This document shows, one piece after another, positions 14,215-63,959 of a DNA stretch of 64,000 nt; the first letter of the stretch is position 1; the number at the start of each line of letters is the position of its first letter. Below the pieces are notes generated by a model that worked only from the letters and a program-made list of their open reading frames with translations, ran no database searches and was not told the origin of the DNA. Both the position numbers and the translations under genes were made by a program. Origin of the DNA: a virus (lineage: Duplodnaviria > Caudoviricetes); IMG/VR virus record IMGVR_UViG_3300012979_000040, positions 7,757-71,756 of that record, one strand, 5' to 3'.

Positions 14215-14232
14215 ATTGCACCTCCTATTCTA

Positions 14233-14910: not shown

Positions 14911-15134
14911 AATAAATATTCCTCCTTTAATATATTATTTTCTTCATCGATCACACCATGCTTCCTGGCAACACGTGCCATGATAGCATCTGATCTGTTG
15001 TTGGGATCGAAATCCCCTCTAGATATTTTTCTGGTGATGTATACAAGACTTCTATCTAGATGATTCTCCTTTGTATCATACTTGATCTTTTTCTTTTTGG
15101 GTCTCTTCACCCTCAGTTTCAATGGATCTCTCAT
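14883..15134 (-). CDS. basic hypothetical protein (start moved to ATG 15134)
   Basis: RBS AGGTGA; a promoter lies inside the longer ORF-track N-terminus. Confidence 0.6.
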   Translation of the reverse strand: MRDPLKLRVKRPKKKKIKYDTKENHLDRSLVYITRKISRGDFDPNNRSDAIMARVARKHGVIDEENNILKEEYLLCKTKRTKS

Positions 15135-15150
15135 TTTATCACCTATATAA

Positions 15151-15191
15151 ATTATACCATAGTAGAAAGTTTTACTCAATAATGGTATAAT
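15151..15191. promoter_or_regulatory. overlapping divergent sigma-A promoters
   Basis: - strand TTGAGT(15174-79)-17-TATAAT(15151-56); + strand TAGAAA(15163-68)-17-TATAAT(15186-91); both TG-extended. Confidence 0.75.
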
Positions 15192-15210
15192 ATAGTAGAA
15201 AGGAGAGACC

Positions 15211-15381
15211 ATGGGAGAAACTAAAGAGCACATTAAAGAATGGATCGAGAGAGAAGTACATGAAATCCACACGTCATATTATGCAGACATGGATGACTGT
15301 GAACTTCTACAATTATTAGAGCATGCACATAAGTTGCAAAGGTATATAGAAAAATTATTAGGGGGTGAGTATAATGACTAA
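15211..15381 (+). CDS. small hypothetical protein (56 aa, MGETKEHIKEW...; below the ORF-track cutoff)
   Basis: RBS AAGGAG after the + promoter; stop overlaps the TerS start. Confidence 0.65.
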   Translation: MGETKEHIKEWIEREVHEIHTSYYADMDDCELLQLLEHAHKLQRYIEKLLGGEYND

Positions 15382-46162: not shown

Positions 46163-46191
46163 ATTATACCATTAAAAGTAATCATCTTCAA
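46163..46191 (-). promoter_or_regulatory. sigma-A promoter for the portal-capsid-tail operon
   Basis: TTGAAG-17-TATAAT with TG extension. Confidence 0.8.
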
Positions 46192-47749
46192 CTGCTACTC
46201 CCCAAGAATCTATCTCTCCACTGTCTAACCTTTCTTCCTCTTCATCTAACTTACGTTGCCATTTAGTACGGGTATCTTCTTCATACTCTTCTAATCCTAT
46301 AGGTGCAATGTCAGATGAATAGAATACTAAGAACAAACCATATGAGTCAATGGCGTGGTCTGCACAACCTTTGTTGATCATACCGATATTGAAATCATCA
46401 TACACAGCATTATCCATTTCTTCTATCAAACTATTAACAGATGTAGATATTCTAAACCTGTGTGTACCATCTATCATCTTAAGTCTAGTAGACGAATGGA
46501 TTTTATCATAACGCATTTGTACTTTACCTTTACCAGATTCAACACCTATAGGGTTTAATCCATAGTAATCAAATACTTCTGATTTCATTTCACCTATTAT
46601 TCTACCAGTATCATCTCTATATCTATCACCACCACGATACATATCATGTGGTAATAAAGTGGCTGTTATATAGTAACCCATTTGTTTAGACTTATCTGCT
46701 ATTGCTCTAACAAAGTCTTCAAATATTAGATCTTGCCCATACATATCATCGAATGTTATAACCCTACCATCTTCAAATACTGCGTGCCATAAGGCTGAGT
46801 GATAAGATGGTTTGTAACCCCAGTCTATAGATATGTATACATCAAAGTTTTGTGGGCCATTGGTTAATTCAAGGAAAGCTTCTCTACCATTTATATACTG
46901 TTCTTCAGGAACATCAAACATCCTACCAGCTACAACATCCCAGTTACCATATAAATCCATTTGCTTTCTTGCTTCATCTTGCATCTCTAACATAGCTGCG
47001 TATGATGCATTTAAGAATGGATTATCTTTATATGATGCTGGTATAAATCTAGTAATAACTTTGATCTTACCTTTAGCTGTGTCCATCCATTCAATGTGGT
47101 CTTTTGTTTCAATAGGAGCATTAGTGTATGGATCATACAATGTAACTGTAGGATCAATAAATCTACGCTTAACCCATTTGTGACCTTTACCTCCAGGGTT
47201 ACAACCAAGTACAACCTTTGTAGGAATTCTTAGTTTCTCGCCTGTATAAGGATTGGTTTGAATTGTAGAACGAACTGTTGATAACAGATAGTTAAATGTT
47301 CTTTCATCTTGTTTAGTAACTTCATCAATAGCTAAGTAGTGAAATTCCCAACCTTGTTGGCTTAATGCTTCACGGTAATCAGCTACACGTTGAAGTGTGA
47401 TGTAACTTCCATTAGGAAAGATTATAGAACGGGAAGGGTACCAAGAGGTACTCTTCTCTCTATATTCATATATTGTTTGCCCACCTGCTTTTTGTGGAAA
47501 CAATGTAGGCAACTTATCTAGGAATGATTGTTTAACGGCATCCAGTTTCTCACGGATGATTATACATTTAGCTCCAGGATAAGTAGTGGCAAACATGAAG
47601 GCGTCAGCTAGAATACCTGCTGACTTACCTCCACCTCTCGAACCACCATAGAGAGTAATACATATATCCTCAAAGGAGCAAGGTGCATTGTGTAATAGCA
47701 CCTGCTTCTCGTGAGGTTGATAGCTTGGTGTGACAACTACCTTAGCCAT
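46172..47749 (-). CDS. terL: terminase large subunit
   Basis: YGGSRGGGKS Walker A, AIDEVT Walker B, GCNPGG motif III, ISIDWG nuclease, DHAIDS. Confidence 0.97.
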   Translation of the reverse strand: MAKVVVTPSYQPHEKQVLLHNAPCSFEDICITLYGGSRGGGKSAGILADAFMFATTYPGAKCIIIREKLDAVKQSFLDKLPTLFPQKAGGQTIYEYREKSTSWYPSRSIIFPNGSYITLQRVADYREALSQQGWEFHYLAIDEVTKQDERTFNYLLSTVRSTIQTNPYTGEKLRIPTKVVLGCNPGGKGHKWVKRRFIDPTVTLYDPYTNAPIETKDHIEWMDTAKGKIKVITRFIPASYKDNPFLNASYAAMLEMQDEARKQMDLYGNWDVVAGRMFDVPEEQYINGREAFLELTNGPQNFDVYISIDWGYKPSYHSALWHAVFEDGRVITFDDMYGQDLIFEDFVRAIADKSKQMGYYITATLLPHDMYRGGDRYRDDTGRIIGEMKSEVFDYYGLNPIGVESGKGKVQMRYDKIHSSTRLKMIDGTHRFRISTSVNSLIEEMDNAVYDDFNIGMINKGCADHAIDSYGLFLVFYSSDIAPIGLEEYEEDTRTKWQRKLDEEEERLDSGEIDSWGVAVEDDYF

Positions 47750-50700
47750 TCAAGATCACTCCTGTCTTTATAGTCTACTCCAGTATCATATGATGTAAGA
47801 TTGTAATCGTTACTCCATATACCCATTTCAGGGGATACGTGTACACTTACTCTGTCAAGATTCCAATCATTATATCTATCAAGCTTTTTGTTATAAGAAT
47901 ATGTTTTAGGATAGTACTTACCAGGATATATATTTGAGTATGGATAGTATGAAGAATAACTACTACCATAATAATTGTTGTTATAAGTCTTCTTGTATTT
48001 AGGTACATATACATCCTTTGTTTCTGTAGGGAATAATTTCTCTAACATTGGGTACATCTCTGATTCATATTCTATAGCTTGTTGTAATTTTAATTGTTCT
48101 GCTGGAGTTAGTGAGTTTATATAAGCTTGTCTATACTCTTTTAAAGTATTTAACTTTCTTATTATAGAGTTGTTATTTAATGCAGCTCTTAGTGTTGCTT
48201 CAGATACATCATTGTCATTGTATTCATGAGTTATATAGTTATATACAACTGTAGAACTTTCACGACCATTGATCATCTTTCTAAGAGTTTGATTAACTCT
48301 ATTAAAGTCATCTACGTCATAAGATCCATATTGAGAAGCGTAATGTCTGTTATAGTACAATTCATCAACACTAGCCATATCGTTTATGTCTAGGTCATAA
48401 TCATAACCTTTAATACCTCTACTAAACGCTTTCATATCTGTTATGAATGCATAGTAGTTAGAAGTATCTTTCTTCCAAGATTTCTGATTACCTAGATCAC
48501 TATTGATACCTTTAGTTAAACCTTTCCATAAAGATGTAAGGAATCCAGTATCTTGATCTGAGTATTTAGAATATTTGTTTTGATCTATAACATTATCTGC
48601 AATACCACTTCCTGTAAAGAATCCAAGGACTTTTCTCATACCGTTCTCAACATTAGTGTATTGGTATTTTTGTTTAGTGCTCATGAATGGATCAGCTATT
48701 TGATAAGGGTCACCACTGTCACCAAACATTTCTTGTCCTGTAACTATTTCAATAGGTAACTTAAGTACTGGGTTTAATCTAGAAAGTACGTTAGCTTTAA
48801 TCCAACCATAACCTTTTTTAGCTAATGTATCATTATACTCATTTGTTAATGGGTTAATATACATTTCTTTAATTTGGTATGCAGGATTTAATGAATCATA
48901 TACAACTGTAGGAGTTCCTCCGATAAGAGTACCAATAGGATCAAGTGTAACACCTTCTTCTATCCACTCTTCTTCAGTCTCTTCATCTACACCGTACATA
49001 TCACATACTGCTGTTATGATTGCATTTGATAATAATGATAATCCAACTACACCTAAGCTAGGCATTACAACTGTGTTATACCATTGTGTTGCATTGTTTT
49101 CAGTTATACCTTCTTGGAATAATCTTCCAACACTCATTGCATATGAACCAAGAGTTCTTGTTAAGTTCATAGGGAATGTTGCGAACATCATTATACCTGA
49201 TGTGTATTTAGATAAATAAGGGAAACCTCCAGGAGAACCAAGCATGTAATCCATGATGTACATAGCTTTATCTCTGTTATCTTTTATACCATCAATAGCA
49301 TTCTTGTTATAGTATTGAGAACCATACCAAGGTCTACCATTATCAAATGATTCTTTAGCTGTTAGATATATAGCGTATCTTCCAAGATGATTCTGTAAGT
49401 CTAACGGCTTAGTCATAAAGTCTGTAATCTTACTTAATATATCTGTACCCATATCTTCTGTAAAGTTGATTGGGTCTTTATTAGTTCCACCCCATAAACT
49501 AGGTTGACCTTCACGTATTAAGTAATCTTTTAAATCTTCAGGTATTGACTTACCTTTTGAACTTAAGGCTTGAGATATATCTTTACCAGCTCTAGCTATA
49601 TTAGGAATTGTATCGTAGTTAGATATAGCTCCCATAGCATAGTCTGAACCAGTATATCTTAAGAATCTACTTAGCATCTTAGCAGGTAATGCCATTTGTA
49701 TTCCTGCTGATGTTGTAGAAATTTTCTTAAATAATTTCATAACTCTTCCAGGAATCTTTCTGGTATATACCTTAGATGAAAGTTGATCTACTAAATCGTT
49801 TCGAGCAAGATAGATTTCTCCACTTAATGCTTTCTCTAGTACATATTGAGCAAACATTGTATCACTCTTACTATTGTAAGATAGTTCAATATTATCTTTC
49901 AAATATGATAGGGATCCGTCATATACTGGAGCAACTGATCCACCTCTTTGAATCTTTTGACCAAACTTATTTACAAGACTGTAACCTTCTTTTTCAAGAC
50001 CTGCTATATATTTAACAAGCTTGTCAGAAGATCTAGAAGAACATTCTATAATTCTTTGTGCAATCATTATCTGAGCCCACATAGCATTGTAAGTTTCTTT
50101 TGCTAATAGTCTAGTTGGTTCATTCACATATTGATCAACATTAGCCATACGATATATCTCAGATAGTGATGATACAACACCGTCTGAAGATGTTTCTGCA
50201 AGTTGTTGTCTTAATGATTCTGCCTTACCTCTTACTTCTCTGTAAGCTTCTAGTATAAGATCAGCACCATTCTTAGAAGTTTTTCTTAATCTGTATATAT
50301 CTAGGTCAGTATACATACTTGTTATCTCTAAGACTTTATCAGTTATTTCTGAATCAAGTGCATTATAAACTTTAAGATCTCCGAATGTTTCTGGTGCATC
50401 TATTATTTCAAATGCTTTGTTAACTATATCAACATTGTTGATTAAAGCTTTACCAGTATATTTACCAGTCAATGCATTGGAAATATTTTCAGCAGCTATA
50501 ACATTACTCATATCTCTAATAAGTTTTTCTGATCCTTCAAAGAAATTAAATATCATGTTTTGTTCAACTATGTTCTTATTACTAGATGGATCATATGCTT
50601 TAGAAATGCTTGATATCTTTTTAAGATTATTAAGTATCATGTTTTCTCTTGCTACTTTATCTTTAGGAACATATGGTGCCATCAGAATGTGGAATGAATC

Positions 50701-53700
50701 AAATGGTTCATTAGATATCTGTGACGCTCTTCCTGCAAGATACATCATATTAGAAATGAATTCATCATAAGCTTTTACTATTTCAGGATGTTTAGTTACG
50801 TAAGAATCATGATCAAGTTTTAATTTGCTGTTCTCAGCTTTCCATTCTTCTTTTGATAATCCCATGTATTTAAGTTTAGCTTCAAAAGTTTTAGGATCTT
50901 TAGAAGCTTCTGTTAACCATCTGAACTTAGCAAATTGTTCAAAGTTTCCAATACCAGCCTTAGTTATCATCTTATTAAGGGCTGTTAACTTTTGACCGTA
51001 TTCTAATTGGATATACTCTGCTTCAGACTTAAAGTTCTTTATACCTATATCAACACCAAGTTGATCAGCGTTGTCTGTAGATATACCACTTCTTGTCCAC
51101 AATCTAGATTCAAACAATTTATCATTAGTAGATAAATCCCATGTGAAGTTTATAAACCCAGAAGACTTATCAGCTGTGTAAGCTCTAACTTTTTTAGTTA
51201 GTTCTTCATAAGCTTCAAACTCTCTTTGTTTAGCTTCTTCAAATTGTTTAGTATCCATTATAGCATTATCAATAGCTTTAGATCTTTTGAATGCTTTTAC
51301 TTCATCATTTGTGAATTCTTGTTTACTAATAGTATCAGTTATATCACGTCTAAGCATGTAACCTTTAGTACCTTTATTTATCTCTCTTCTATAATCTCTA
51401 GGATCAATAATATCATGATGGTGAACTCTTTGATAATTTAATCCACCTTCATCATTTACGAATTGTCCTACAAGCTTATTAACTTCTATACCTTTTATAC
51501 CACGGTATTCAGCAGCTTTTTCTACTGAGTTTTTATTTTTATCCATAGCAAGAGACATTATATAGAATGCTCTAACAGATGGTGAATATCCTGTAGATAA
51601 TCTTTCATTCTCAATAGACTTACCTATTAAGCCTTCAAATGTAGGTTTAGTAGGAGTGTTATCTGTTTCGAATACATCATAATCATCAGAACCTTTTGTG
51701 AATATTTCATCAATCTGAGGTCTTATACCAAAGATATCTTGTTCACCACCAAGGTTTGTTTTAGTATTTCCACCGAAGACATATTCATTTAGTATAGGAT
51801 CATATATTAGTGTACCCATCTTAGTATCTATAGATGTCCAGCCAGTACCTATACTCGCACTATTTGGAATGAATTGCCTGTAACCCATATCACCTTCTTG
51901 AATAGCTTTCAAGATTGCATTTGTATTAGGGTATGCTCCAGTTACACCTCTATAGAATTCTATGAATGGAACATGTAATATAGTGTTCTGTACTAATGTC
52001 CTATCATTTGTACTCTTATTAGCCATATTAAATAGTTTACCGTGAACACTCTCATACTTAGGGTCAAGTATTTGAGCTTCAGATCCACCACTGGCTTTTG
52101 AAGATGTAGATCTAGGGTTACTGTAGAATTCTTCTGAGAAGTTAGAAGGCATTGTTGGATCTAACTTATTAGCTATTTCATTACTAAATAGGAACTTCAT
52201 TACATTTGAACTATTAGCAAGTTTAATCATTCTATCTCTACCTAGAGTTCTCATTAAAGCATATTGTTCTTCAAGTAATTCATAAGAGTTTATCTTCTCT
52301 CTAGAATATCTTAAGTTATTTAAATACTCTTCTCTTGTTTTAAATGGACTGTTATAACTTCCGAATAAACCTTCTAACTCTTTATCAGTTAAAGAGTTTA
52401 ATAAAGCATCTGTTCTTAAGAACATCACATATGATCCTGTATCTCCCCAAGCAACTCTATGATCACCTTTATTAGTGTCTAAGACTTTAGATATCTGTGA
52501 TGTGTCTATGTATAATCTTCCTTCTTTATCACGCTTTAATGCAGCACTTCCGAATCTAGCCATCTGCATGAATGACATTATATTAGACATTGACATCAAT
52601 TCAAACGATCTGATGTGACTAGGATCATTAGGATCTAGTTTAGGTGTGTAATCAATATCGGCACCTATGATATTAGTAGGTACTCCTTTTAACACATAAC
52701 CAGATCTTGGTTTGCCGTCAGGTCCTTTGAATGTTACATACTCAGCATTTCTAAAGTAAGATAACAATTCAATACCTTGAGCATATTTATTCCAGTTCTT
52801 AGTAGCATTATTAGCATCAACTATTAAGTCAATATTAGCAGCTTTAAAGCTATCCCCTTCTTTATCAACATCTGATATTTTTGTTTCTGCAGTATTACCT
52901 TTAAAGAATCCAGCACCTGCAAGTTTCTTACCTACAACTTCAGTTTCTTCAAAATAAATTATTGCATTATCTTTTTTCGATACATCAGATATAACTATGT
53001 TATTGTGAGCTTTAACAACAGACCCATCGTCTCTAAAACCTAGTACTTGGCCTTCTCTAATTACAGCACCTTTACGAACTCTATCAACATGCTTACCATT
53101 AACTTTGTCTTTTATAAATGTTATTCCTTCATAAGGCATAACTTTTGCAGCAAAGCTTCTTATCTTACTATTTCTATTTCCGATATTTGTATTAAGACCT
53201 ACTGTATCTTCATTATTAAATATACCTTTTGTTACAAATACATTAACTCTATTTTGTCTAGGTGAATAGTCGTCATCTACAAGTTCAACCATAGAACCTT
53301 GGATAGCTTCCATAGCCTTAGCAAAGTTGAATGTACCTTCTGATACTTCATCTAATTTGTCTGATGTAGTAACATCTAAAGGTTTATTTAAGTTTGTACT
53401 AACCTTACTTCTTACTAATTCTGATTGTAACATATCTGATAAAGGAGTGTCATTAGCTGCATATCCAGATATCTCTTTCTTTCTATGTGTAAGTTGTGCA
53501 AGTTTTTCATCTAGTAATTTAGTTCTCTCCAATTGATCAGAGAATGTAGTGTCTTTTGAAACAAGATCAAGAGCCCTATCTAAAGCAGCTTTTGTTTCAT
53601 CGTTAAGATTATTGTAGTTTCTACTAAATAACTCTAAATCATGTAATGCTTGTGATAAAACTGTTTCTGCAAAGTCAGCATAAGCTTTAGATTTATTTAC

Positions 53701-56700
53701 ATCATTAGTTATTTTTGAAATGAACTCATCTGTATTAGTTGCCCATTTATAGAAGTTAACTAAATAATCTTGCTTGAATGCTTGAATGCTTGCATCGTTA
53801 TATTTATTTGAGTTAACCATCCTAGATAGGTTAGCAGTTAAGTCATTAACAAATGTTACTAAAGTCTCTTGTGAATTAACATTATCCTTAATCATGTTAC
53901 TCATACTCTTAGTTAAATACATCGAAGGTGTATACAAGTCTTGTAAAGGATCTTCTAATGTTTTATTAGGAGCCATTAAGTATGATATAACCTTTTGATA
54001 AGTACCAACCGTAGGGTCAAGTATATTTGATTTAGTTAACTCTTGTCTAGCAAACATTGCTTTTCTAGCTTTATATGTATAAGAGTTTTTATATAATGCA
54101 GGGTTGTTAACAAATCTAATAGGATGTGACATATTAGTAAATGTTTCTTTTACACTTAAGTCTTTAACAGCTTTATTGATAAATTTAATTTTTTCTTCCT
54201 CGGTAGTATGTCCAAGAGTTAATGCTATACCTTGTTCAACATATAATTTTTCTAACTCTAGTGCCATAAGATCTTCTATATCTTTGATCTCTTTAGCAAC
54301 ACTATCAGGAATTTCAACTTCATTTTGGACTCTACTTAAGATATTGTCAAGGTTTTTACTTAATTCTGTTATCTCTTTTGTAGTACCAAGTCTTACAACT
54401 TCTTCTGATTCTACAGAAAAGTTTTTATTGATTTTATTTAATCTTGCTTGAGCTCTAGTATATAAGTTTGTAGGTTCCCACATAATCTTATATATAATAG
54501 GAGCCATTTCAAGCATTCCATTATTAACTATGTTACCATCCGCATCTTTATGAGCATCTGGTGATAATACAGTAGTCATTGTATGGTCACCATCGAAGTC
54601 ACGGTTACGTAAGATCTCTTGAGTTTCAGGAGTAAATCTTATTGTAACTTCATCACCCTCAACCAATCTAACTCTTAATGGTAGTATAGGGTTCATGTTA
54701 TCGGCAGGATATGTGATAGACATTAAATAGTAATTACCATCACTAGCTCTCATTGTTTCAACATCATACACATTAAAGAATTTCTTTAGTGCTGCTCTAG
54801 TGATAACGATGTCACCTGTAGATACATTCTTAAGTTTACCTTTAGCTTTATCTGTAGTCATATCTACTTCTATGTATTCATTAGTAAATGGTGAAACTGA
54901 GTCCATCATTGAATATAATCCAACAAATGATCCTGTACCCTTATTTTTACCTAGAACATTTTTAATTTCTGATGCTAATGATTCAACACCACCATCATCA
55001 TAGTATATATTGCGTTCTTCGTATTCAGATAATATAGATTCGTCATAACCTTCTTCTATAGTTATAGCATTGTTAATAAACATATTTCTAAATACTTGCA
55101 TAGCAGCTTCAGAGAATTGTTGTTTATTATTAATACACATTTCTTGTACTTCCATTAAGTATGGTATATAAGGTCTAGTCCTTACAAATTCTGTAGCAAC
55201 ATTTTCAGGTATACCATTTATCTTACCTTTTCTAAAACCTACAGTTCCTGTAGATAATTGATTGATAAGATTACCTCTATAAGTTTTAACTACATCCTCA
55301 TCTAACATTGATGAGTTTATATTTAGAATTTTATAAGTTTCAGTATCCTTATTAGCTAATTTCTCTAGGAATGTACTTAGTGATTTATCATCAGATTGTT
55401 TAATGTAAGTGTAATATAAATTATCAAATGCTTTTATAAAATCTCCTTGTGTATTATAAGATTCTATAGCTATTGCATCTATAATATTATATTTCATATT
55501 ACCATCAACAATCATCTTTACATAGCTATTATTGTTATAACCTAATTGATCCATAAGTCTTAACCATACACTACCTCTAGTATTATTCTTTAGATAGTTC
55601 ATAGCTCTTTGTACTTTCTTTATATTATCTAATGTTGGATTATAACTTTTAAAACTCTTTCTAGCTTCAGATAAATTTTTAGTATACATAGCTTTATCTA
55701 CTGCATTATATATCTCTGCTATTTGAGCTTCCGTTAAATCCTCAGGTAATAATTTATGAATGTCAATAATAAGTTTATTTCTATCGTCAACCATATTCTT
55801 TGTATTACTAAAATGATCTATTAATAATTCCATCATGTCTTCAGTGTCTTGGTCAGCTGAGTGAGCTTCTTTATAATGTTCAACACTGAAAGTTCTTTTG
55901 TATTCCTCTTCTTGACCTATAGATCTTGTAGTATCACCTTCACGTTTTAATACAGTTTCGATAGCATCAAGTCTCATAGCTTTAGGATCTAGATAATCTT
56001 TAAGTATTTCAAACTCGAAGTTATCGCCATTATAAGCTATGTACATATCAACATCTTCTGTGTCTTTTAGTATTCTAGCTGCTTCCTCTTTAGTTATGAA
56101 TGTTCCAGCTTGTGTGTTATGTTCTTTATAATCCTCAAGAGCTTTTCTATAAGATTCATTCTTTAAGTAGAACGCACCTTTCTTATCTACATGTTCAGCA
56201 ATCCACTTCTCTTCTGAAGATGCATACTTAGTATTATCTTTAAAAGATAATTGATGATCAATGAAGTATGTTTTAATTTCTTCTGTTAGTTTACCATTAA
56301 CTACTTTGTAAGTTTTTACAGCCATTTGGAAAATGTTAGACATATCTTTAATGTTAGGATCTAAGTTACCACTTTCTAAATCCACTGCTTTTACATGTTT
56401 AATAGTAGAACCAGTACCATTGAAGAATTTATTTAACTCTTCTACAGCTATAGTGCTTTCCCCATTTAATGTAGTAACTTTATAAGTTTCATTAAATCCT
56501 TGAGTCCAGTTTCTAAATCTAGCCATTAGAGGTACTTTCTTATTGAATAAGTAATCAAGCACTTCTGGGTTTTCAAAGTGGTTATACAAATATTTCTTAA
56601 TTGCTGTTACATATTCATCAGTAGTTGATTTGCTGTGTAAACCATATAGTGTTCTATAGTGGTCTAAATCTTTTTGAGATATATTTACCCCACTTTTAAA

Positions 56701-59700
56701 TTTATCTTCCATCTCTAATATCTTACTAATATTGTATTTAGTAAAGTCTAGTTTTGAATACATATCAGGATTGTCTGGTTTAAAGCTTGCTAATATATCT
56801 TCTTTAATAGCATCAGCAAGTTCTCTATGTTTAGGATCTAATAACTTATAATCTATACCATAAAGTATTGCACTAGCTATCATTCTTACTTGTTCATTAT
56901 CAGCATCACGTGCACGTCTTGCACTACCTAACATTTCTTCAACAGTATATTTATTAGCACCTGCTGAATAATCTGGTGGAAGTACTAGAGCTCTCCAAGC
57001 ATCTCCTATGTTTGTTTTTGATAAAGCTTCTAATGCATTATCAACTTTATCTTTTTCTGTTATTGTTTCAGTTATTATCTTATTCATTAAAGATTGTAAC
57101 TGCTTTGAATTTAAGTTACTTAACTTAGTAAAGAAATCTGAGCCTTGAACACTATTAAGTCTCCACTCGTTTTCCTTTAACACTTTAAGTATTACTTCGT
57201 TCTTGAAGTTTCTAACATCAGATTCTGTTTCAAACTTCCTATAAGAGAATGTTAATCCATCAGGATTGTCAGCATTATGCTTATCTAAGTTAATAAATAC
57301 TTTACCAACAAAGTCTTTATCATCATGACCTAACATAGTATTAAGTAAGTCTACATGAGTTCTATTACCATCCGCTTTAGTAATGTTAGCACTCTCGTAC
57401 TCAGTACCTTTTGCTGGATTGAAGAATGAGAACTTCTTATAGTTAGATGTATATCTAATACCAGATGTAGTTCTTACTAATGAAGCTATATAATCTTTAA
57501 CTCTTGATGCATAGAAGTTATCTGACATATCAAGTTTAAGAGCTTTAACTAATGCCTTTTGAGTATTAACTGATGTAGATACCATCTTAGCTAAATTGAT
57601 ATTAGCAGATATATCTACTATAGCTCCTCTAGAAGTTAAGTCTCTATTGATTAACTTATTATCTTTAGCCATTTGTCTAGAGAATATCTGAGTATAATAA
57701 TTAGAATCATCTCTAGCATAATCACTAGAAGTTTTGTCATGGATAACTGATGTTGATTTACCTGTTAATGGATCTACTATTGTTGCTGGCATCTCGCTTC
57801 TATAATCATTAGCAAATCTTTCTGTATTACGAGCTAGTGCATCAACTACAGCTTGTTCAGATAATGCAGGGTTTTTAATCTTCTTTAATGAAACACTCTG
57901 TTCTGGATTAATAGCTTGTAAAAGTTTCTTACCATTTAGTGGAGCTTTAACAAGTATCTCTTTTGCATCCATAAAGTTTGTAGCACTACCCGTTTGAGCA
58001 AATACTTTCTTATCACTAGATATTCTGATTCTAGGTCCTATGTCTTCTCCTATTACATGTTTCATAAGTCTTTCATACAATGAGTCAACTCTTGCTTTTA
58101 CATCTGCACCTTTTAAACCTTGAATATTTAATTTCTCAAAGAATTCATTATAAGCTTCTGCTTCTATAGCATATAGTCTATCTAAGTCTTCAAGCGTAAT
58201 CTTACCATCTGTAGCTCCTAGGATTATCCATAGAGATGTAGCATCTGATGGTTCGAATATAAATTTATAATCAGTATCTTGCTTAACTAAATTTCTTGAT
58301 ACTTGTTGATTCATATCAAGCATATTCATATGATCTTGAACATATTTGAATGCATTCTTTATTGTATTATTAACGTATTCTGGGTTCCAGTCTTTAGCTG
58401 TCATGTTATATTTAATACCCATGATATTATCTAATAATGATTTAGATACAACTGTATCACCATCTATATTAGGTATTGATCCCCAGAATCCAACAGATGA
58501 TATGTTAGATCTTCTATATCCAGTATCATTATAATTACTAACATCATATGAGTTATAACCTTCTGAATAGATATCTTTTACAGTTTTAATATCTTCAGCA
58601 GATAATTCTGTCTTACCTTCTTGTACGAATTTAATCATACGTTTAAGAACTCTACCATCAGTCAACCACACTTTATGATCTTCGTTTTCACTATCAGAAA
58701 CATAATTATCTTGTAATTGTTTATAAGATTCAACAAGTATAGCATAAGGATCATTTGTTTCTGGATCTAATTGATCAAGTTCTCTGTATGCATGGAAGTC
58801 TTCTTGCTTATCGAAAGTAAGTTTTAACCTATCTTTTGAGAATGGGTTGTATGAGAAGTGTCCTTCCTTCGCAGCTAAGAATAAACCATTTATTAATTCT
58901 GTTCTTAGAGTTTGTTTCTGATCGTAGTTAAACATCTTGTTTGCGAATCCATATAATGATCTATTATCTGTAGTAAGTCCTCCAGAAATATCAGGTACAA
59001 ATTCAAGCTTATGCATTTCAGGGTTCTGGAATACAGTAGTAACTTGAGCAGCATCATCAGATGCAAATGGTAATATCTTAAATAAGTTTGGAACATCACT
59101 AGATAATATATAGTATTCCATATCTTCTCTAGTTACCCAAGGTTTCAAACCTATTGTGAAGTATCCCTCTTTAACACCTTTAGATGGTCTTTCTTCATAG
59201 AAACCATCTTGCCCTAGAATACTTAAGTTATATAATTGTTCCTTATGTCTTATAGGTATAGCTATATAACCATGCTTAGCATTCTCTAATACAAAGTCTA
59301 TATAGTCACAAATCATTAATGACTTAGCTATATCGTGGTTAGCGTTAGCTATCTTAGCAGTATCATTCAATGTTAGATAAGTTTGTTCTTGTCCTGCTAG
59401 ACCACCACTTCTACCACTTTTAGAAGCTTTATTAGTTTCTTTTCTTATAAAGATTCCAACACCATCTGAGTCTGTCTCGAATGATGATAAGTCTACAGGA
59501 TTCAAATATATAGGTGCATCATTGTTACGCATCATATGTTTTTGCATCTTGCTACTTATTTTATTTATATGTATGTTACTAGATATCATTTGATAGTAAT
59601 CATATCTAGCCACAATATCATTGTTAGGATCTAGAACTCTTACGTTATAAACAATATCTTCAACACTTAAATCTTTAAGCTTTTCTTTTATTTGCTTAGC

Positions 59701-62700
59701 AGCTTCTTTATTAATAATACCTGTGTCATATTCATATGTGGATTTGTATACAGCAAAGCTTTGACCTTCTTCAGATAAGCTAGTCTTAAGAATGTTTTTC
59801 ATATCTTCTGCATTCTTAGGGGCTCTTGTGAAATCAGCTGGAATATACTCTGCTTCAACTAACATATTATATAACCAAGTAATCTCTTCCATGTTGCTAT
59901 CATCTAACTTAATAGTCAGTGTCTTGTGTTTAGCAACCTCTAATTGATGATCAAGTTGTTTGATTGTAGCTCTTTCAGATGCTTGTCTAGACCATGATTG
60001 TTTTTTATCCATAGTCATTGCTGATGCATCATCTTGTCTAGCTACTTCTTTAGCAGCATCAGATACTTCTTTGTGCACCCAACGTGCCATGTCTATAGTA
60101 ACAACATCACCAGTAAATTTAACAGGTGTGAAGTTTTCTACTTCTCTAAAGAATTCTAATAACTCTTTAGCTCTTGTGTGTATGAAAGAATCGTCTTTAC
60201 CTTTGTAGTTTGCAAGCTTCTTCAACTCTTTTACAAGGAATGATTCACCGGCTTCGTCATCCATCTTTTTAAGATTTGCGTAGCCATCTTGGCCGATAAC
60301 CTCAATCATATCCTTAAAATCTTTTGAGAGCCTATCGGTTGCGTACTGAAAAGAACCTTCTTTAATCTTTTCTGCTTGTAATAGTACATACTTAGTATAT
60401 GCATTAGGATCGATAGGGATCTTATGTGATTCCATATCCGCAATAACTTCTGCCTCTAAGTCTGTTATTTTCTTAGACGCCATCATCTCTGCAGCTATAG
60501 TCTTACTACTGAACCTGTTTGTTTCATTAGTGCTTAGCTGTTTGATTGTTGCATATAATAATGTATATTTTTCTATATCTGTTAAACTGTCTGCTTTCTT
60601 AACATTCTTAAGTGAAAGCTCAGTACTGAATGTATTTCTAAGTTTGTTACCAATAGAACCTTCCTCATCACCGTACTTAGATTCAATAGCCATTAGTAGC
60701 TCAGCTACCTCAAGTTTGTCCATTGCACCTGATTCGATTGTATGAGTGAACACTTGTTCTAGTAGGTCTTTGGTATCTTGTTTAGATAGATTAGCTCCAT
60801 CACCTTCTAGAGTTTTAACTAGTAGGTCTATAGCTTCTATCTTCATATCATATTGCTCTGATGTAACAACTCTACCACTCAAGATATTAATAGCTAAGTT
60901 AACTTTTTGTTGTACGTCCATAGTGAATAATTGACCCATCTTGTTAGCTGGTGCGATCATACCATAAGTATTATCGTCAACTTTGTAGAATAAGTCTGGC
61001 ATTATATCAACAAGAATATTAAATGTAGCTCTTGATGAGTTGTAACCTTTTCTATCTGGAGATTCGTTTTTCAAACGTATGAATTGGCTAGCTGCCAAGA
61101 TGTTCTCTGTAGTAGTGTTGTACTCTTTAGCTTTAGCTTCTGCAGCTTTCTTGGCTTGAGACTTATCTTTTCTCTTCATTTGTTTGTATACAGTGATATC
61201 CTCTTCAGCATCAGTTAGAATCTTTTCGGCGAAATCTATTCTAGCACGAATACGATCTTCTACTTTTTGAGATTCAATAGATCCTGTCATGAATAAATAT
61301 TGATCATATAGTGATCTACCATATGCTTCACCACTAGCTATGCTAGCTTCATAAGCTTTGGCATTCTTATATTTATCACCAAAGAATTTCCTGTATGACC
61401 AAGTGAATAATGATCTTATACCATGACGCTTAGCATCTTTCATCTTTTCATTATATGTGTTCATCCTGTTACGATATACATCATTAGCTATGCTGTTCAT
61501 CTCTTTATAGATGTTTATCATAGCTGGGTCCAAGGTCTCTTTCATAGTACGTCTAACAAGAGGTGACATGTTAGAGTCCCCAGTTCTTAGGCCTTCATCT
61601 AATTGAGACAATGCATATAGTGATCTATCTGCTATAGTAGGATTCTCTAAAGGTTTACCATTCGTGTCTAGAGGTTTTTGGAAATCCTCTAAGAATTTCT
61701 TCCTTACTAGCATATAAGATTGTTGAGCTTTAGGGTTAGTAGTATCTGCTTCTCCTTTATATAGCTCATTCAATGTAGCTTGGTACCACATCTCAGCTTT
61801 CTCACCTGCAATGTTACGGTACTCAACATTAGCTCTTAATGTTGGTAATGTCATGATACCTGCTTGTACTGCTGTTCTTAGGGCTAAGTTCCAGTTGTAG
61901 GTATCCTTCTCACCGTCATCATCAGTATCGATTCTAGCTTTCTCGTTCCATTCGATGCTGCCAGTCTCAGTATTGTAGCCCATGATGTTACCTGTGTACA
62001 TAGTCAATGCATTATCAAGGAAGTCTGCAGCTGTGTTGATACCAACACGCCAGTATGGATTAGATGATGCTCTGAATAATATATTAAGTTTAAGATTTTT
62101 AGATACATCAGCTTTGTTCTTAAATAGGCTGCCCCATCTATCAAGTTGATTATCATCAATACCACCAGATAAGATTAGGGAGATCGCTCCGTTAACAGCT
62201 GCGTTAGTAGCTGCCATCTTGAATATCTCTGTGTGATCTATCTCGAATTGCTCTTTGCCTTCTTTAAATCTTTGATAGTTCATTTGAGCATGATCATTAT
62301 ATAGTTGGTTAACATTATTGTAGAAGTCTTTGAACATGTATACCCCAACTGTCTTAGAGTGATCCAACCATGAACCTAGGGTCTTGGCAGATCTCACTGT
62401 TTGCTTGATACCCTCTTTAGTAGTTAGATCCTTAGCTGCTTGTAGTGGATTCTTGAAGTTACCTGTACTTCTTGAGTATAGAAGACCAGTTTGTTTTAGC
62501 ATCCATCCAGACACTTTGTGTCCGTGCTTCATAAGGTCATCACCCCATGATGCTACTTTACCGAATGCTCCACCAAGCACAATTCCTCCGGTCATCATAC
62601 CGATAGATTCACTAACTGTGTATGCCCACTCCCATCCTTCAGTCTTACCATCTAAGTCAATGTAGCCTGAGTCTAGTAGTCCACCTACATCATTGAACCA

Positions 62701-63690
62701 TCCTCCTACTTGGTTAGTAGTGTTAGCTACGTGCTCGAAGAAGTTCGTTCCTTGTGATGCTTCTGTGAAATAAGTGAACGGGCTAACTATCACCGCTGCT
62801 AGCTGTACGAACATTTTCGGAATGTCAGCGAAGCCTTTAGTGAATGAGCGTCCCATTGTTATCAGCTCGTTGCCATCGTTAAGGTCGATTGCTGTGATCT
62901 GCCCTTTGTCGTTTAGGGTATAGTGAGCTACGTTATCACCACTTGAGTTATTGTCCAATAAGTATAGGCGACCGTTTGTGTGCAAGTAGTATGATTGCGT
63001 ATCTGTGTGGTAGATCCTGTCTAGGGCTGAGATCTGTCCACTGGTAATGAACTCTTCGTAATCGTTTGTTTTGTATGTGTCCTTGATATAACGGGTAAGT
63101 TCTGGGAACAAGGTAGCTATGTCCTTATTAGATAAGTCACCTTTGCCTAGGTAGGTAGTCATTTGACTCTCTGTCACTTTCTTAGTGTACGCATACTCTA
63201 GTTGTGCGTAGTAGTTCTCACGCTCTTGGGCTGCCTTCAGGATTTGTTGATTTAGATAGGGGTCCTCTAGGGGATTAGTGAAATCATGGCTTCTGTACTT
63301 CTGCTCCCACCATCCAGCGTTGCGGATGTCATAGCCGTTTTCTTTTAAAATGTCCACGGCGTACAAGTCTTTAAGATAAGTTGTCTTATCTATCCTGTTT
63401 TCTTCAAGGGCTTGCTTGTACTCGTCACGTCTGTCTAAGAAGATGAATGTGTCTTCTTGTGGGACTGGTGGCATTGATGGATTTTGGGCCTTGAAGTCTT
63501 GGTATGTAGTTGTTGGTTTTAGGTCTTTGTCAAGTAAGTTATGTTTGGAATAAAATTGTTTACGTTCCTCGAAGGGATTCGTGTCTGTCGTGAATCGCTG
63601 TGTTGCAGCGGTTAATGGATCTGTCGGGTTGTTAGTTATGATGTTTTCCATTGCCTCTTCACGGCGTTTTTGAATTTCTTCCCATTGCAT
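47737..63690 (-). CDS. giant (5317 aa) putative virion protein with DEDDh exonuclease and two-barrel RNA polymerase domains
   Basis: single uninterrupted ORF with RBS GAAAGGA; DLES/AYNGDNFE/HSADQD (aa ~2437-2615), NRDFDGD (aa 3029-3035), NNED (aa ~3494) and GKKLAGAGFFKG (aa 3587-3598). Confidence 0.88.
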   Translation of the reverse strand: MQWEEIQKRREEAMENIITNNPTDPLTAATQRFTTDTNPFEERKQFYSKHNLLDKDLKPTTTYQDFKAQNPSMPPVPQEDTFIFLDRRDEYKQALEENRIDKTTYLKDLYAVDILKENGYDIRNAGWWEQKYRSHDFTNPLEDPYLNQQILKAAQERENYYAQLEYAYTKKVTESQMTTYLGKGDLSNKDIATLFPELTRYIKDTYKTNDYEEFITSGQISALDRIYHTDTQSYYLHTNGRLYLLDNNSSGDNVAHYTLNDKGQITAIDLNDGNELITMGRSFTKGFADIPKMFVQLAAVIVSPFTYFTEASQGTNFFEHVANTTNQVGGWFNDVGGLLDSGYIDLDGKTEGWEWAYTVSESIGMMTGGIVLGGAFGKVASWGDDLMKHGHKVSGWMLKQTGLLYSRSTGNFKNPLQAAKDLTTKEGIKQTVRSAKTLGSWLDHSKTVGVYMFKDFYNNVNQLYNDHAQMNYQRFKEGKEQFEIDHTEIFKMAATNAAVNGAISLILSGGIDDNQLDRWGSLFKNKADVSKNLKLNILFRASSNPYWRVGINTAADFLDNALTMYTGNIMGYNTETGSIEWNEKARIDTDDDGEKDTYNWNLALRTAVQAGIMTLPTLRANVEYRNIAGEKAEMWYQATLNELYKGEADTTNPKAQQSYMLVRKKFLEDFQKPLDTNGKPLENPTIADRSLYALSQLDEGLRTGDSNMSPLVRRTMKETLDPAMINIYKEMNSIANDVYRNRMNTYNEKMKDAKRHGIRSLFTWSYRKFFGDKYKNAKAYEASIASGEAYGRSLYDQYLFMTGSIESQKVEDRIRARIDFAEKILTDAEEDITVYKQMKRKDKSQAKKAAEAKAKEYNTTTENILAASQFIRLKNESPDRKGYNSSRATFNILVDIMPDLFYKVDDNTYGMIAPANKMGQLFTMDVQQKVNLAINILSGRVVTSEQYDMKIEAIDLLVKTLEGDGANLSKQDTKDLLEQVFTHTIESGAMDKLEVAELLMAIESKYGDEEGSIGNKLRNTFSTELSLKNVKKADSLTDIEKYTLLYATIKQLSTNETNRFSSKTIAAEMMASKKITDLEAEVIADMESHKIPIDPNAYTKYVLLQAEKIKEGSFQYATDRLSKDFKDMIEVIGQDGYANLKKMDDEAGESFLVKELKKLANYKGKDDSFIHTRAKELLEFFREVENFTPVKFTGDVVTIDMARWVHKEVSDAAKEVARQDDASAMTMDKKQSWSRQASERATIKQLDHQLEVAKHKTLTIKLDDSNMEEITWLYNMLVEAEYIPADFTRAPKNAEDMKNILKTSLSEEGQSFAVYKSTYEYDTGIINKEAAKQIKEKLKDLSVEDIVYNVRVLDPNNDIVARYDYYQMISSNIHINKISSKMQKHMMRNNDAPIYLNPVDLSSFETDSDGVGIFIRKETNKASKSGRSGGLAGQEQTYLTLNDTAKIANANHDIAKSLMICDYIDFVLENAKHGYIAIPIRHKEQLYNLSILGQDGFYEERPSKGVKEGYFTIGLKPWVTREDMEYYILSSDVPNLFKILPFASDDAAQVTTVFQNPEMHKLEFVPDISGGLTTDNRSLYGFANKMFNYDQKQTLRTELINGLFLAAKEGHFSYNPFSKDRLKLTFDKQEDFHAYRELDQLDPETNDPYAILVESYKQLQDNYVSDSENEDHKVWLTDGRVLKRMIKFVQEGKTELSAEDIKTVKDIYSEGYNSYDVSNYNDTGYRRSNISSVGFWGSIPNIDGDTVVSKSLLDNIMGIKYNMTAKDWNPEYVNNTIKNAFKYVQDHMNMLDMNQQVSRNLVKQDTDYKFIFEPSDATSLWIILGATDGKITLEDLDRLYAIEAEAYNEFFEKLNIQGLKGADVKARVDSLYERLMKHVIGEDIGPRIRISSDKKVFAQTGSATNFMDAKEILVKAPLNGKKLLQAINPEQSVSLKKIKNPALSEQAVVDALARNTERFANDYRSEMPATIVDPLTGKSTSVIHDKTSSDYARDDSNYYTQIFSRQMAKDNKLINRDLTSRGAIVDISANINLAKMVSTSVNTQKALVKALKLDMSDNFYASRVKDYIASLVRTTSGIRYTSNYKKFSFFNPAKGTEYESANITKADGNRTHVDLLNTMLGHDDKDFVGKVFINLDKHNADNPDGLTFSYRKFETESDVRNFKNEVILKVLKENEWRLNSVQGSDFFTKLSNLNSKQLQSLMNKIITETITEKDKVDNALEALSKTNIGDAWRALVLPPDYSAGANKYTVEEMLGSARRARDADNEQVRMIASAILYGIDYKLLDPKHRELADAIKEDILASFKPDNPDMYSKLDFTKYNISKILEMEDKFKSGVNISQKDLDHYRTLYGLHSKSTTDEYVTAIKKYLYNHFENPEVLDYLFNKKVPLMARFRNWTQGFNETYKVTTLNGESTIAVEELNKFFNGTGSTIKHVKAVDLESGNLDPNIKDMSNIFQMAVKTYKVVNGKLTEEIKTYFIDHQLSFKDNTKYASSEEKWIAEHVDKKGAFYLKNESYRKALEDYKEHNTQAGTFITKEEAARILKDTEDVDMYIAYNGDNFEFEILKDYLDPKAMRLDAIETVLKREGDTTRSIGQEEEYKRTFSVEHYKEAHSADQDTEDMMELLIDHFSNTKNMVDDRNKLIIDIHKLLPEDLTEAQIAEIYNAVDKAMYTKNLSEARKSFKSYNPTLDNIKKVQRAMNYLKNNTRGSVWLRLMDQLGYNNNSYVKMIVDGNMKYNIIDAIAIESYNTQGDFIKAFDNLYYTYIKQSDDKSLSTFLEKLANKDTETYKILNINSSMLDEDVVKTYRGNLINQLSTGTVGFRKGKINGIPENVATEFVRTRPYIPYLMEVQEMCINNKQQFSEAAMQVFRNMFINNAITIEEGYDESILSEYEERNIYYDDGGVESLASEIKNVLGKNKGTGSFVGLYSMMDSVSPFTNEYIEVDMTTDKAKGKLKNVSTGDIVITRAALKKFFNVYDVETMRASDGNYYLMSITYPADNMNPILPLRVRLVEGDEVTIRFTPETQEILRNRDFDGDHTMTTVLSPDAHKDADGNIVNNGMLEMAPIIYKIMWEPTNLYTRAQARLNKINKNFSVESEEVVRLGTTKEITELSKNLDNILSRVQNEVEIPDSVAKEIKDIEDLMALELEKLYVEQGIALTLGHTTEEEKIKFINKAVKDLSVKETFTNMSHPIRFVNNPALYKNSYTYKARKAMFARQELTKSNILDPTVGTYQKVISYLMAPNKTLEDPLQDLYTPSMYLTKSMSNMIKDNVNSQETLVTFVNDLTANLSRMVNSNKYNDASIQAFKQDYLVNFYKWATNTDEFISKITNDVNKSKAYADFAETVLSQALHDLELFSRNYNNLNDETKAALDRALDLVSKDTTFSDQLERTKLLDEKLAQLTHRKKEISGYAANDTPLSDMLQSELVRSKVSTNLNKPLDVTTSDKLDEVSEGTFNFAKAMEAIQGSMVELVDDDYSPRQNRVNVFVTKGIFNNEDTVGLNTNIGNRNSKIRSFAAKVMPYEGITFIKDKVNGKHVDRVRKGAVIREGQVLGFRDDGSVVKAHNNIVISDVSKKDNAIIYFEETEVVGKKLAGAGFFKGNTAETKISDVDKEGDSFKAANIDLIVDANNATKNWNKYAQGIELLSYFRNAEYVTFKGPDGKPRSGYVLKGVPTNIIGADIDYTPKLDPNDPSHIRSFELMSMSNIMSFMQMARFGSAALKRDKEGRLYIDTSQISKVLDTNKGDHRVAWGDTGSYVMFLRTDALLNSLTDKELEGLFGSYNSPFKTREEYLNNLRYSREKINSYELLEEQYALMRTLGRDRMIKLANSSNVMKFLFSNEIANKLDPTMPSNFSEEFYSNPRSTSSKASGGSEAQILDPKYESVHGKLFNMANKSTNDRTLVQNTILHVPFIEFYRGVTGAYPNTNAILKAIQEGDMGYRQFIPNSASIGTGWTSIDTKMGTLIYDPILNEYVFGGNTKTNLGGEQDIFGIRPQIDEIFTKGSDDYDVFETDNTPTKPTFEGLIGKSIENERLSTGYSPSVRAFYIMSLAMDKNKNSVEKAAEYRGIKGIEVNKLVGQFVNDEGGLNYQRVHHHDIIDPRDYRREINKGTKGYMLRRDITDTISKQEFTNDEVKAFKRSKAIDNAIMDTKQFEEAKQREFEAYEELTKKVRAYTADKSSGFINFTWDLSTNDKLFESRLWTRSGISTDNADQLGVDIGIKNFKSEAEYIQLEYGQKLTALNKMITKAGIGNFEQFAKFRWLTEASKDPKTFEAKLKYMGLSKEEWKAENSKLKLDHDSYVTKHPEIVKAYDEFISNMMYLAGRASQISNEPFDSFHILMAPYVPKDKVARENMILNNLKKISSISKAYDPSSNKNIVEQNMIFNFFEGSEKLIRDMSNVIAAENISNALTGKYTGKALINNVDIVNKAFEIIDAPETFGDLKVYNALDSEITDKVLEITSMYTDLDIYRLRKTSKNGADLILEAYREVRGKAESLRQQLAETSSDGVVSSLSEIYRMANVDQYVNEPTRLLAKETYNAMWAQIMIAQRIIECSSRSSDKLVKYIAGLEKEGYSLVNKFGQKIQRGGSVAPVYDGSLSYLKDNIELSYNSKSDTMFAQYVLEKALSGEIYLARNDLVDQLSSKVYTRKIPGRVMKLFKKISTTSAGIQMALPAKMLSRFLRYTGSDYAMGAISNYDTIPNIARAGKDISQALSSKGKSIPEDLKDYLIREGQPSLWGGTNKDPINFTEDMGTDILSKITDFMTKPLDLQNHLGRYAIYLTAKESFDNGRPWYGSQYYNKNAIDGIKDNRDKAMYIMDYMLGSPGGFPYLSKYTSGIMMFATFPMNLTRTLGSYAMSVGRLFQEGITENNATQWYNTVVMPSLGVVGLSLLSNAIITAVCDMYGVDEETEEEWIEEGVTLDPIGTLIGGTPTVVYDSLNPAYQIKEMYINPLTNEYNDTLAKKGYGWIKANVLSRLNPVLKLPIEIVTGQEMFGDSGDPYQIADPFMSTKQKYQYTNVENGMRKVLGFFTGSGIADNVIDQNKYSKYSDQDTGFLTSLWKGLTKGINSDLGNQKSWKKDTSNYYAFITDMKAFSRGIKGYDYDLDINDMASVDELYYNRHYASQYGSYDVDDFNRVNQTLRKMINGRESSTVVYNYITHEYNDNDVSEATLRAALNNNSIIRKLNTLKEYRQAYINSLTPAEQLKLQQAIEYESEMYPMLEKLFPTETKDVYVPKYKKTYNNNYYGSSYSSYYPYSNIYPGKYYPKTYSYNKKLDRYNDWNLDRVSVHVSPEMGIWSNDYNLTSYDTGVDYKDRSDLEWLR
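52780..53270 (-). other. RNAP beta-like double-psi barrel within the giant protein
   Basis: QNRVNVFVTKGIFNNEDTVGL resembles GQN-x-x-VA...GYNFEDSI; GKKLAGAGFFKG resembles GDKMAGRHGNKG; IDLIVD resembles VDIVLN. Confidence 0.8.
54560..54900 (-). other. RNAP beta-prime-like double-psi barrel with catalytic DxDGD
   Basis: YP...LVEGDEVTIRFTPETQEILRNRDFDGDHTM aligns by eye with P...[26 protein letters not shown]; DFDGD at 54586-54600. Confidence 0.88.
55820..56400 (-). other. DEDDh (DnaQ-like) 3'-5' exonuclease domain within the giant protein
   Basis: ExoI AVDLES (D2437, E2439), ExoII IAYNGDNFE (E2559), ExoIII HSADQD (H2610, D2615). Confidence 0.75.
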
Positions 63691-63719
63691 AATATCGTCC
63701 TTTCTGCTTTCGCAATTAT

Positions 63720-63728
63720 ATTATATCA
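63720..63728 (-). promoter_or_regulatory. extended -10 promoter for the giant gene
   Basis: TGaTATAAT ~30 nt upstream of the start; flanked by a TCGCAA/TTGCGA inverted repeat (63710-15, 63740-45). Confidence 0.55.
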
Positions 63729-63896: not shown

Positions 63897-63959
63897 TTGT
63901 TATCACCTCCTGGTTCTCTTAGTACCATTATACCATATTGGTTCTTAAAGTACCACACT

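Follow-up and report, generated by a model that had tools for sequence, protein, structure and literature searches.

The window analysed in this study is a stretch of 64,000 nucleotides of viral DNA, corresponding to bases 7757-71756 of a single viral contig of 71,756 bp (IMG/VR record IMGVR_UViG_3300012979_000040), and all positions given below are window coordinates. On its minus strand lies a giant open reading frame (ORF) for a protein of 5317 amino acids (aa), which is directly followed by the gene for the large terminase, terL. In the giant protein we identified a predicted single-chain RNA polymerase (RNAP) core with two double-psi beta-barrels, an exonuclease domain of the DEDDh type and a C-terminal module. 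The features of the giant gene and of terL are as follows.

47737..63690, minus strand: giant ORF; 5317 aa, ~606 kDa, isoelectric point 5.5, ATG start, only 4 Cys
55831..56403, minus strand: predicted DEDDh 3'-5' exonuclease domain, aa ~2430-2620, ~400 aa upstream of the RNAP core
54466..54936, minus strand: predicted beta-prime/Rpb1-type double-psi beta-barrel, aa ~2919-3075, with an R-x-P-x-D element (P2995, D2997) and the metal-binding loop
54586..54600, minus strand: DFDGD, predicted Mg2+-binding catalytic loop, aa 3031-3035
53983..54081, minus strand: long helix, candidate bridge helix, aa ~3204-3236 (helix 405-437 of the structural model), with D3225 and G3229
52663..53259, minus strand: predicted beta/Rpb2-type double-psi beta-barrel, aa ~3478-3676, with E3494-D3495, K3589, K3597, IDLIVD and K3635
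47740..50013, minus strand: C-terminal module, aa 4560-5317, where conservation is highest
46172..47749, minus strand: terL, the next gene downstream, which overlaps the giant ORF by 13 nt

The giant ORF accounts for 22% of the 71,756-bp genome; in the leftward arm it is the second gene and heads the block of head genes. At the base composition of this strand, a stop codon is expected about every 12 codons, which gives a log10 chance of about -197 for 5317 open codons. Across the ORF, 458 and 871 stops occur in the two remaining frames of this strand. We therefore consider the giant ORF to be real, as did a preliminary description of this DNA, in which a single 16-kb ORF directly upstream of terL had been noted. 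No internal repeats were found in the 5317-aa protein.

Two double-psi beta-barrels and their predicted catalytic residues

The DFDGD loop, the sequence NNEDTVGL around aa 3492-3499 and GKKLAGAGFFKG at aa 3587-3598, which is followed by IDLIVD, can all be read from the translation at the places where the preliminary description had put them. It had assigned the first of these motifs to beta-prime and the other two to beta, and both assignments hold in alignments to beta and beta-prime profiles that were built from 32 proteobacterial rpoBC loci. With hhalign, the first barrel aligned in register to beta-prime at P 3e-4 to 1.5e-3, with RhPaD paired to NRAPTLH and DFDGD to NADFDGD, and the second barrel aligned in register to beta at P 0.045, with K-L-A-G...K-G paired to GDKMAGRHGNKG and IDLIVD to VDIVLNP. 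The ED element aligned to FEDSI of beta (P 0.012), and P was 0.09 and 0.85 when the profiles were crossed as a control. The Pfam family RNA_pol_Rpb1_2 matched two members of the giant protein family at sub-threshold values (E 3.6e-4 and 6.3e-4), and its hidden Markov model (HMM) gave no match at E <= 10 in the six frames of the whole genome.

A structural model of aa 2800-3950 was built with AF2 (AlphaFold 2) on an alignment of 25 sequences (predicted local distance difference test, pLDDT, 69; predicted template modelling score, pTM, 0.50). In this model, residues 120-276 and 679-877 form two beta-rich domains with a helical region between them, and the DFDGD loop is placed between a short helix (model residues 222-229) and a strand (238-242), as in beta-prime. 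The preliminary description had made its case depend on double-psi barrels near aa 2940-3045 and 3475-3630, and they are predicted at aa ~2919-3075 and ~3478-3676. A Foldseek search of the PDB with this model returned almost exclusively RNAP beta/Rpb2 chains among the top 50 matches (probability ~1.0, E 1.6e-3 to 4e-2), and also gp96 of Thermus phage P23-45 at rank 8 (E 5.6e-3, probability 0.38). In the VIA alignments, model residues 104-452 map to Rpb1, RpoA' and beta-prime chains, including A190, and residues 669-877 to Rpb2.

Other structure searches gave similar results. A search independent of Foldseek recovered RNAP large subunits for both domains, mixed with chance helical matches of similar Z, along with generic double-psi barrels, namely PEX1-N for the first domain and Sec18-N and expansin for the second. 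The matches in BFVD were led by the RNAPs of mimivirus and moumouvirus (E 1.7e-4 and 7.9e-4), followed by those of pithovirus, nudivirus, pox and crAss-like viruses, and in a shape search of the ESM Atlas RNA_pol_Rpb1 families made up eight of the ten rows. Clamp, flap, zinc or assembly-platform elements were not recognised in the giant protein.

Residue conservation was counted in an alignment of 43 sequences with an overall identity of 13-50%. P2995, D3031, D3033, G3034, D3035, G3229 and K3589 are found in all 43 sequences, and K3597 and D3225 (42/43 each), K3635 (40/43) and D3495 (39/43) are near-invariant. Because both barrels are predicted and the catalytic residues are invariant or nearly so in these relatives, the active site appears to be intact and under selection, and we consider it very probable that the protein has an RNAP fold with a complete active site. 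The core as such is well supported; enzymatic activity, with the incoming phage DNA as template, we infer.

The pattern of conservation also bears on an explanation in which the giant protein is purely structural, as a part of an internal core or as a channel former for ejection, and the barrels are an inactive relic. Such a role would fit the ~4000 aa that carry no enzymatic signature and the helical C-terminal module being the most conserved part of the protein, and gp66 of phage phi14:2, a single-chain RNAP, was itself crystallised in a self-inhibited state (bioRxiv 10.1101/2020.03.07.982082). However, all expected catalytic residues are retained, with few exceptions, across sequences as divergent as those in the alignment, which is not expected of a relic, and we regard a purely structural protein as very improbable.

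The exonuclease domain and the C-terminal module

The exonuclease domain carries the three motifs ExoI (D2437-x-E2439), ExoII (YNGDNFE2559) and ExoIII (H2610-x-A-x-x-D2615), which are kept in 16 of 16 aligned relatives, the ExoII acid being Glu in the subclade of this phage and Asp in distant members. D2437, E2439, H2610 and D2615 are invariant in the family alignment. Three of ten members were matched by the Pfam family RNase_T (best E 1.4e-5), and DEDDh_C was matched at E 1.2e-4. When searched against the PDB, the profile of the exonuclease family matched a TREX-like exonuclease, 9l8a (E 1.6e-5), as well as the exonuclease motif of archaeal family-B DNA polymerase, RNase T and TREX1/2. The preliminary description had recognised nothing in the ~4000 aa outside the polymerase motifs, which no longer holds for aa ~2430-2620 but does hold for the C-terminal ~750 aa, which have no identifiable fold. 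The domain shares ExoI-III, with an ExoIII of the His type, with RNase T, TREX1/2, DNA polymerase III epsilon and the family-B exonuclease motif, and differs from these DEDDh exonucleases in being fused inside a giant RNAP-bearing protein. It represents an unexplained, conserved addition to an RNAP protein and lends itself to a direct assay.

Exonuclease domains are typical companions of DNA polymerases, and another explanation of the giant protein is that its core makes a product other than mRNA, as a primer-synthesising or PolD-like polymerase that is paired with the DEDDh exonuclease for proofreading or processing. The presence of the domain throughout the clade, with an ExoII motif like that of family-B polymerases and at a distance of only ~400 aa from the core, counts in favour of this explanation, as does the two-barrel core that is described for archaeal PolD as well (PMC7281927). 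However, no PolD chain was found in the top 50 of any structure search, where RNAP subunits dominate. In addition, a family-A DNA polymerase that brings its own exonuclease and a D5-type primase-helicase are already present among the gene products of this phage. A product other than mRNA is therefore improbable in our view, if somewhat less so than an inactive relic.

For the C-terminal module, the AF2 model is all-helical (pLDDT 63) and ends in a Tyr-rich tail of low confidence. A hydropathy scan identified aa 4874-4892 (window 49015-49071) as the only strongly hydrophobic 19-residue segment of the giant protein. Structure searches with the module gave no significant match, and Foldseek against the PDB returned nothing below E 0.06, with helical transporters only (probability <= 0.2). 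Features from a language model hinted at the domain LPD38 (score 0.95). This identity was not supported by the PF18857 HMM, which had no match in the genome, by a Pfam scan of each member of the C-terminal alignment, in which LPD38 was not found, or by hhalign (P 0.55) against an alignment of the C-termini of phi24B gp47, Vibrio D70, Dimitile, BcepIL02 gp70, NK-7 and BKO1-TP3 gp55.

A clade of uncultured phages and its gene neighbourhood

We compared the locus to nine related loci that were fetched through their terL, the products of which are 46-98% identical to that of this phage. In all nine, an ORF of 4963-6072 aa lies directly upstream of terL and ends at this gene. Direct finds of the giant protein comprised seven full-length homologues of 4963-5334 aa. 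More than 130 terL clusters fall into the same range of identity to the phage's terL (46-98%), many of them on contigs of 67-79 kb, and we therefore consider the clade to be abundant, uncultured and undescribed; no publication on it was found in a literature search.

A profile of aa 2800-3950 gave 37 matches among 1.84 billion representative proteins, all of which were giant proteins of this clade or fragments thereof, so that by sequence the family stands alone. No matches to Pfam or PHROGs were obtained for any of the three thirds of the giant protein, with no Pfam model at threshold. A tblastn search of 50,697 GenBank phages with the RNAP region and with the C-terminal module also gave no match. 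The RNAP-region profile yielded only chance matches to calmodulin among the PDB sequences. In a scan of IMG/VR, a single protein as query found nothing and the profile as query found one distant locus. The identity to close relatives is 60-76% over the C-terminal ~750 aa, 51-56% around DFDGD and 26-31% around the second barrel. The N-terminal ~500 aa are rich in Gly, with many invariant Gly and Asp positions, and the GC content over the 5' end of the giant gene (window 60001-64000) is 0.36-0.41, as compared to ~0.31 elsewhere in the gene.

On two related contigs of 71,105 and 69,495 bp, the giant gene has been called as a shorter C-terminal protein (P0167, 2463 aa, and P0168, 2678 aa). One of the two begins ~100 aa ahead of the first barrel and the other within the exonuclease domain, and the short calls could be real splits, frameshifts or assembly errors. 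One terL relative (P0098) is 862 aa long, ~330 aa longer than the others, and contains a LAGLIDADG_3 domain (PF14528), so that this terminase from a related phage probably harbours an intein or a homing endonuclease.

According to the classification of the source record, the 71,756-bp contig is linear with an estimated completeness of 67%. The identity of terL is indicated by Terminase_3/Terminase_6N matches in a 98%-identical relative and by ~26% identity to annotated terL proteins of Arthrobacter and Bacillus phages. The portal belongs by homology to the SU10_portal family that is carried by close relatives, with ~21% identity to actinophage portals, and the likely capsid protein has no match among GenBank phages. 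Besides the portal, the recognised phage genes include those for the family-A DNA polymerase and the primase-helicase mentioned above, an SNF2 helicase, a PD-(D/E)XK nuclease, an AAA_24 ATPase, a single-stranded DNA-binding protein (SSB), a GroEL-like chaperonin, a VWA protein, an endolysin with M23 and CW_7 domains and a leucine-rich repeat (LRR) protein of the BspA type. In the scan of the structural genes we recognised no further gene for ejection or for an internal core, which indirectly favours a virion role of the giant protein. No tRNAs or Rfam families were found. Judged by these genes, the contig represents an uncultured phage of ~72 kb with a podophage-type portal. Its host is probably Gram-positive, to which the CW_7 cell-wall-binding repeat of the endolysin points. 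The preliminary description had proposed a podophage of a Gram-positive host, and the SU10-type portal and the M23 and CW_7 endolysin fit these two suggestions.

Some further observations concern other parts of the genome. The chaperonin gene (window 6733-8295, minus strand) matches Pfam Cpn60_TCP1 at E 8e-30, with the best stretch covering profile positions 2-209 of 490 only. The 626-aa protein encoded at 1747-3627 (plus strand), in a rightward arm of mostly small genes, has a C-terminal VWA/CobT-like domain. Two large ORFs of 516 and 749 aa at 10458-14214 (minus strand), between the replication genes and the chaperonin genes, have no match in Pfam or PHROGs. Related phages encode a tail-region protein of 2652 aa with CotH and LRR domains (20585-21638 of the related locus L007), instead of which the window has the BspA-type LRR protein of 594 aa (34691-36475). 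In L007 and in a second related locus, L005, a small protein with a Flg_new domain follows the capsid gene (~16340-17011).

Proposed role and comparison with known polymerases

The reading that we favour is that the giant protein is a virion RNAP, which is packaged, ejected with the genome and transcribes early genes; we assign it a probability of roughly 0.6. We infer packaging and early transcription from the position of the gene, the size of the protein and analogy to known systems, and what we propose on its ejection and timing and on the function of the C-terminal module is of the same kind. The protein would be produced together with the products of the head and packaging genes and enclosed in the capsid. 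When a cell is infected, it would thread through the portal and the tail channel as a string of loosely connected domains, and in the cell it would make RNA on the incoming phage DNA, as a first wave of transcription that perhaps also helps to draw the genome in. The helical C-terminal module, with its one membrane-like helix, may serve packaging or the passage of the cell envelope.

Several observations weigh against a packaged early polymerase, among them host-type promoter-like elements in the genome. Those close to the giant gene are the following.

63715..63728, minus strand: extended -10-type promoter-like element (TGATATAATATAAT), read from the sequence, ~25 nt upstream of the ribosome-binding site of the giant gene
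63726-63896, minus strand: 56-codon ORF with a strong ribosome-binding site, the stop of which overlaps the extended -10 box just before the giant gene
63927-63935, minus strand: extended -10 box (TGGTATAAT), after two direct repeats and before the 56-codon ORF

The two direct repeats of ~20 bp, TGCTAACAAGTGTTACCAAA and TTGCTAACAAATGTTACCAAAA, are located at the right genome end (window 63726-64000, minus strand), and together with the -10 boxes they look like an operator with a promoter for the host RNAP. A perfect TTGACA-17-TATAAT is present at 16303-16275 (minus strand). Its divergent promoter-like partner at 15993-16021 (plus strand) matches 11 of 12 positions, and the two lie in the gap upstream of the gene block 15272..10458. 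This pair suggests that part of the genome is transcribed by the host polymerase. In view of these host-type elements, the phage may not depend on a polymerase of its own. Nor did the genome contain a convincing repeated 10-12-mer as a candidate promoter for a phage polymerase. The remaining difficulties concern the core itself, in that no trigger loop was identified and hhalign of the inter-barrel region against the bridge and trigger region of beta-prime gave no signal (P 0.4). The VIA alignments to Rpb1 and RpoA' run from the barrel to chain residues ~850-880 and end at the helix of aa 3204-3236, and because of the hhalign result we treat its assignment as a bridge helix as tentative. A scan for sigma-70 promoters gave counts that overall equal chance.

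The promoter-like elements in front of the giant gene would also suit a phage RNAP that is not packaged and is instead made during infection to transcribe middle or late genes, like the non-virion RNAP of P23-45 or those of jumbo phages, and the evidence for the polymerase core applies equally to such an enzyme. However, the known non-virion RNAPs are compact, and gp64 of P23-45 is not described as a giant protein (PMC10770324). A chain of 606 kDa with a non-enzymatic C-terminal module as its best-conserved part, and a fixed position overlapping terL in every relative, are hard to explain for such an enzyme and fit a virion component better. An unpackaged polymerase is thus unlikely, though the least so of the three alternatives considered. 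We favour the packaged, ejected polymerase over it because of the fixed terL overlap, the extreme size, the non-enzymatic nature of the best-conserved part and the analogy to gp66, gp96 and gp50 of phage N4.

To our knowledge, virion-carried two-barrel RNAPs have been established experimentally in two phage lineages only, represented by gp66 of crAss-like phages and gp96 of Thermus phage P23-45. In gp66 of the crAss-like Cellulophaga phage phi14:2 (PDB 6VR4), a beta-type barrel is followed by a connector and a DFDID loop, and the enzyme resembles QDE-1 (bioRxiv 10.1101/2020.03.07.982082). As in our case, gp66 is a giant protein of a short-tailed phage in which a single-chain two-barrel RNAP lies amid more than 1000 aa of domains with no assigned function, and the same role of packaging, ejection and early transcription has been proposed for it. 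It differs in the order of its barrels, in the non-Gly fourth residue of DFDID, where all 43 relatives of the giant protein have the canonical DFDGD, and in its host, which belongs to the Bacteroidota rather than to the probable Gram-positive hosts of this clade. In BFVD, the crAss-like RNAPs were found at ranks 16-43 only, with probabilities of 0.14-0.28, and 6VR4 was not among the matches listed.

The RNAP of P23-45 gp96 (PDB 8H2M/8H2N) forms the N-terminal part of a siphovirus tape measure protein, in which the beta-type double-psi beta-barrel (DPBB), DPBB-B, precedes the DxDxD-bearing DPBB-A (PMC10770324). It shares with the giant protein a two-barrel RNAP embedded in a virion-type protein of ~5000 aa, whereas here the RNAP lies in the middle of the protein, the gene is located upstream of terL and the phage has a podophage-type portal; a tape-measure signature was not found in the giant protein with Pfam or PHROGs. 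What the preliminary description had stated on gp66 and gp96 agrees with the published papers.

The third virion polymerase considered, gp50 of N4, has a T7-like right-hand polymerase fold that is unrelated to double-psi barrels. It is a functional analogue, in that N4, likewise a podophage of ~70 kb, carries a giant single-chain RNAP with additional domains on its N- and C-terminal sides. The gp50 protein has ~3500 aa and is organised as beads-on-a-string domains that pass through a channel of ~35 A (PMC13434306). Packaging of the giant protein would mean that 606 kDa have to pass a podophage tail, a problem of protein translocation comparable to that of gp50.

A further comparison is with the polyvalent proteins, such as phi24B gp47 and BcepIL02 gp70, which are described as giant multidomain proteins encoded near portal, terminase or late genes and predicted to be virion cargo, a status that proteomics has shown for phi24B gp47 (PMC5512222; bioRxiv 10.64898/2026.04.10.717836). 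Giant genes of 9-17 kb lie beside the portal or terminase gene in phi24B (gp47), BcepIL02 (gp70), Dimitile and BKO1-TP3 (gp55), and their products are regarded as cargo that the virion injects. The giant protein resembles polyvalent proteins in combining unrelated catalytic modules, an exonuclease and an RNAP, in one chain, and in the overlap of its gene with terL. The polyvalent signature domains LPD1/5/38, MuF and metallopeptidase were not detected in it, and the only RNAP named among the polyvalent-protein domains in the accessible part of PMC5512222 is an N4-like virion RNAP, with no two-barrel module.

The closest structural relatives of the giant protein in the PDB, BFVD and the ESM Atlas are the multisubunit RNAPs (beta-prime/beta, A'/B, Rpb1/Rpb2 and those of giant viruses). 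With these it shares both double-psi barrels, the R-x-P...DFDGD arrangement with Gly at position 4, the ED element, K-x7-K and a VDIV-like strand. Unlike in the multisubunit enzymes, both barrels are here carried by one chain instead of two or more subunits, and the beta-prime-type barrel comes first. The DFDGD loop (aa 3031) precedes the lysine barrel (aa 3589) by ~560 aa, and this order is collinear in 43/43 aligned relatives. The order in gp66, QDE-1, gp96 and gp64 is beta-type barrel, DxDxD barrel, bridge helix and trigger loop (bioRxiv 10.1101/2020.03.07.982082; PMC10770324). The barrel order of the giant protein is thus the reverse of that in these four single-chain enzymes. Since the best structural matches are multisubunit-type RNAPs and not QDE-1 or gp66, an independent origin of the single-chain RNAP of this clade is suggested by the models, though not shown. 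As a more specific and tentative proposal, for which we see less than even odds, the clade may have an independently evolved class of single-chain two-barrel RNAP that is derived from, or sister to, the beta-prime and beta modules of multisubunit-type enzymes and not the QDE-1/gp66/YonO lineage. In this class the two modules would have been joined in reverse order, with a DEDDh exonuclease functionally coupled to them.

Giant proteins of virion type in which a two-barrel RNAP is embedded are already known. The present one is set apart by the order of its barrels, by a canonical DFDGD and a fused DEDDh exonuclease, by a host that is probably Gram-positive and by a gene position upstream of terL. 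We know of no RNA polymerase that combines reversed barrels with a coupled DEDDh exonuclease. If the coupling is real, the exonuclease could provide an injected transcription machine with 3'-end trimming or proofreading. The analysis adds a whole clade of uncultured phages of ~70-79 kb, with an enzyme that is invisible to Pfam, PHROGs and profile searches. In comparison with the known single-chain enzymes, the reversed order is relevant to the number of times that phages have made single-chain RNAPs from the cellular core and to the sources they used, and it offers a natural test of the connectivity that a two-barrel active site tolerates.

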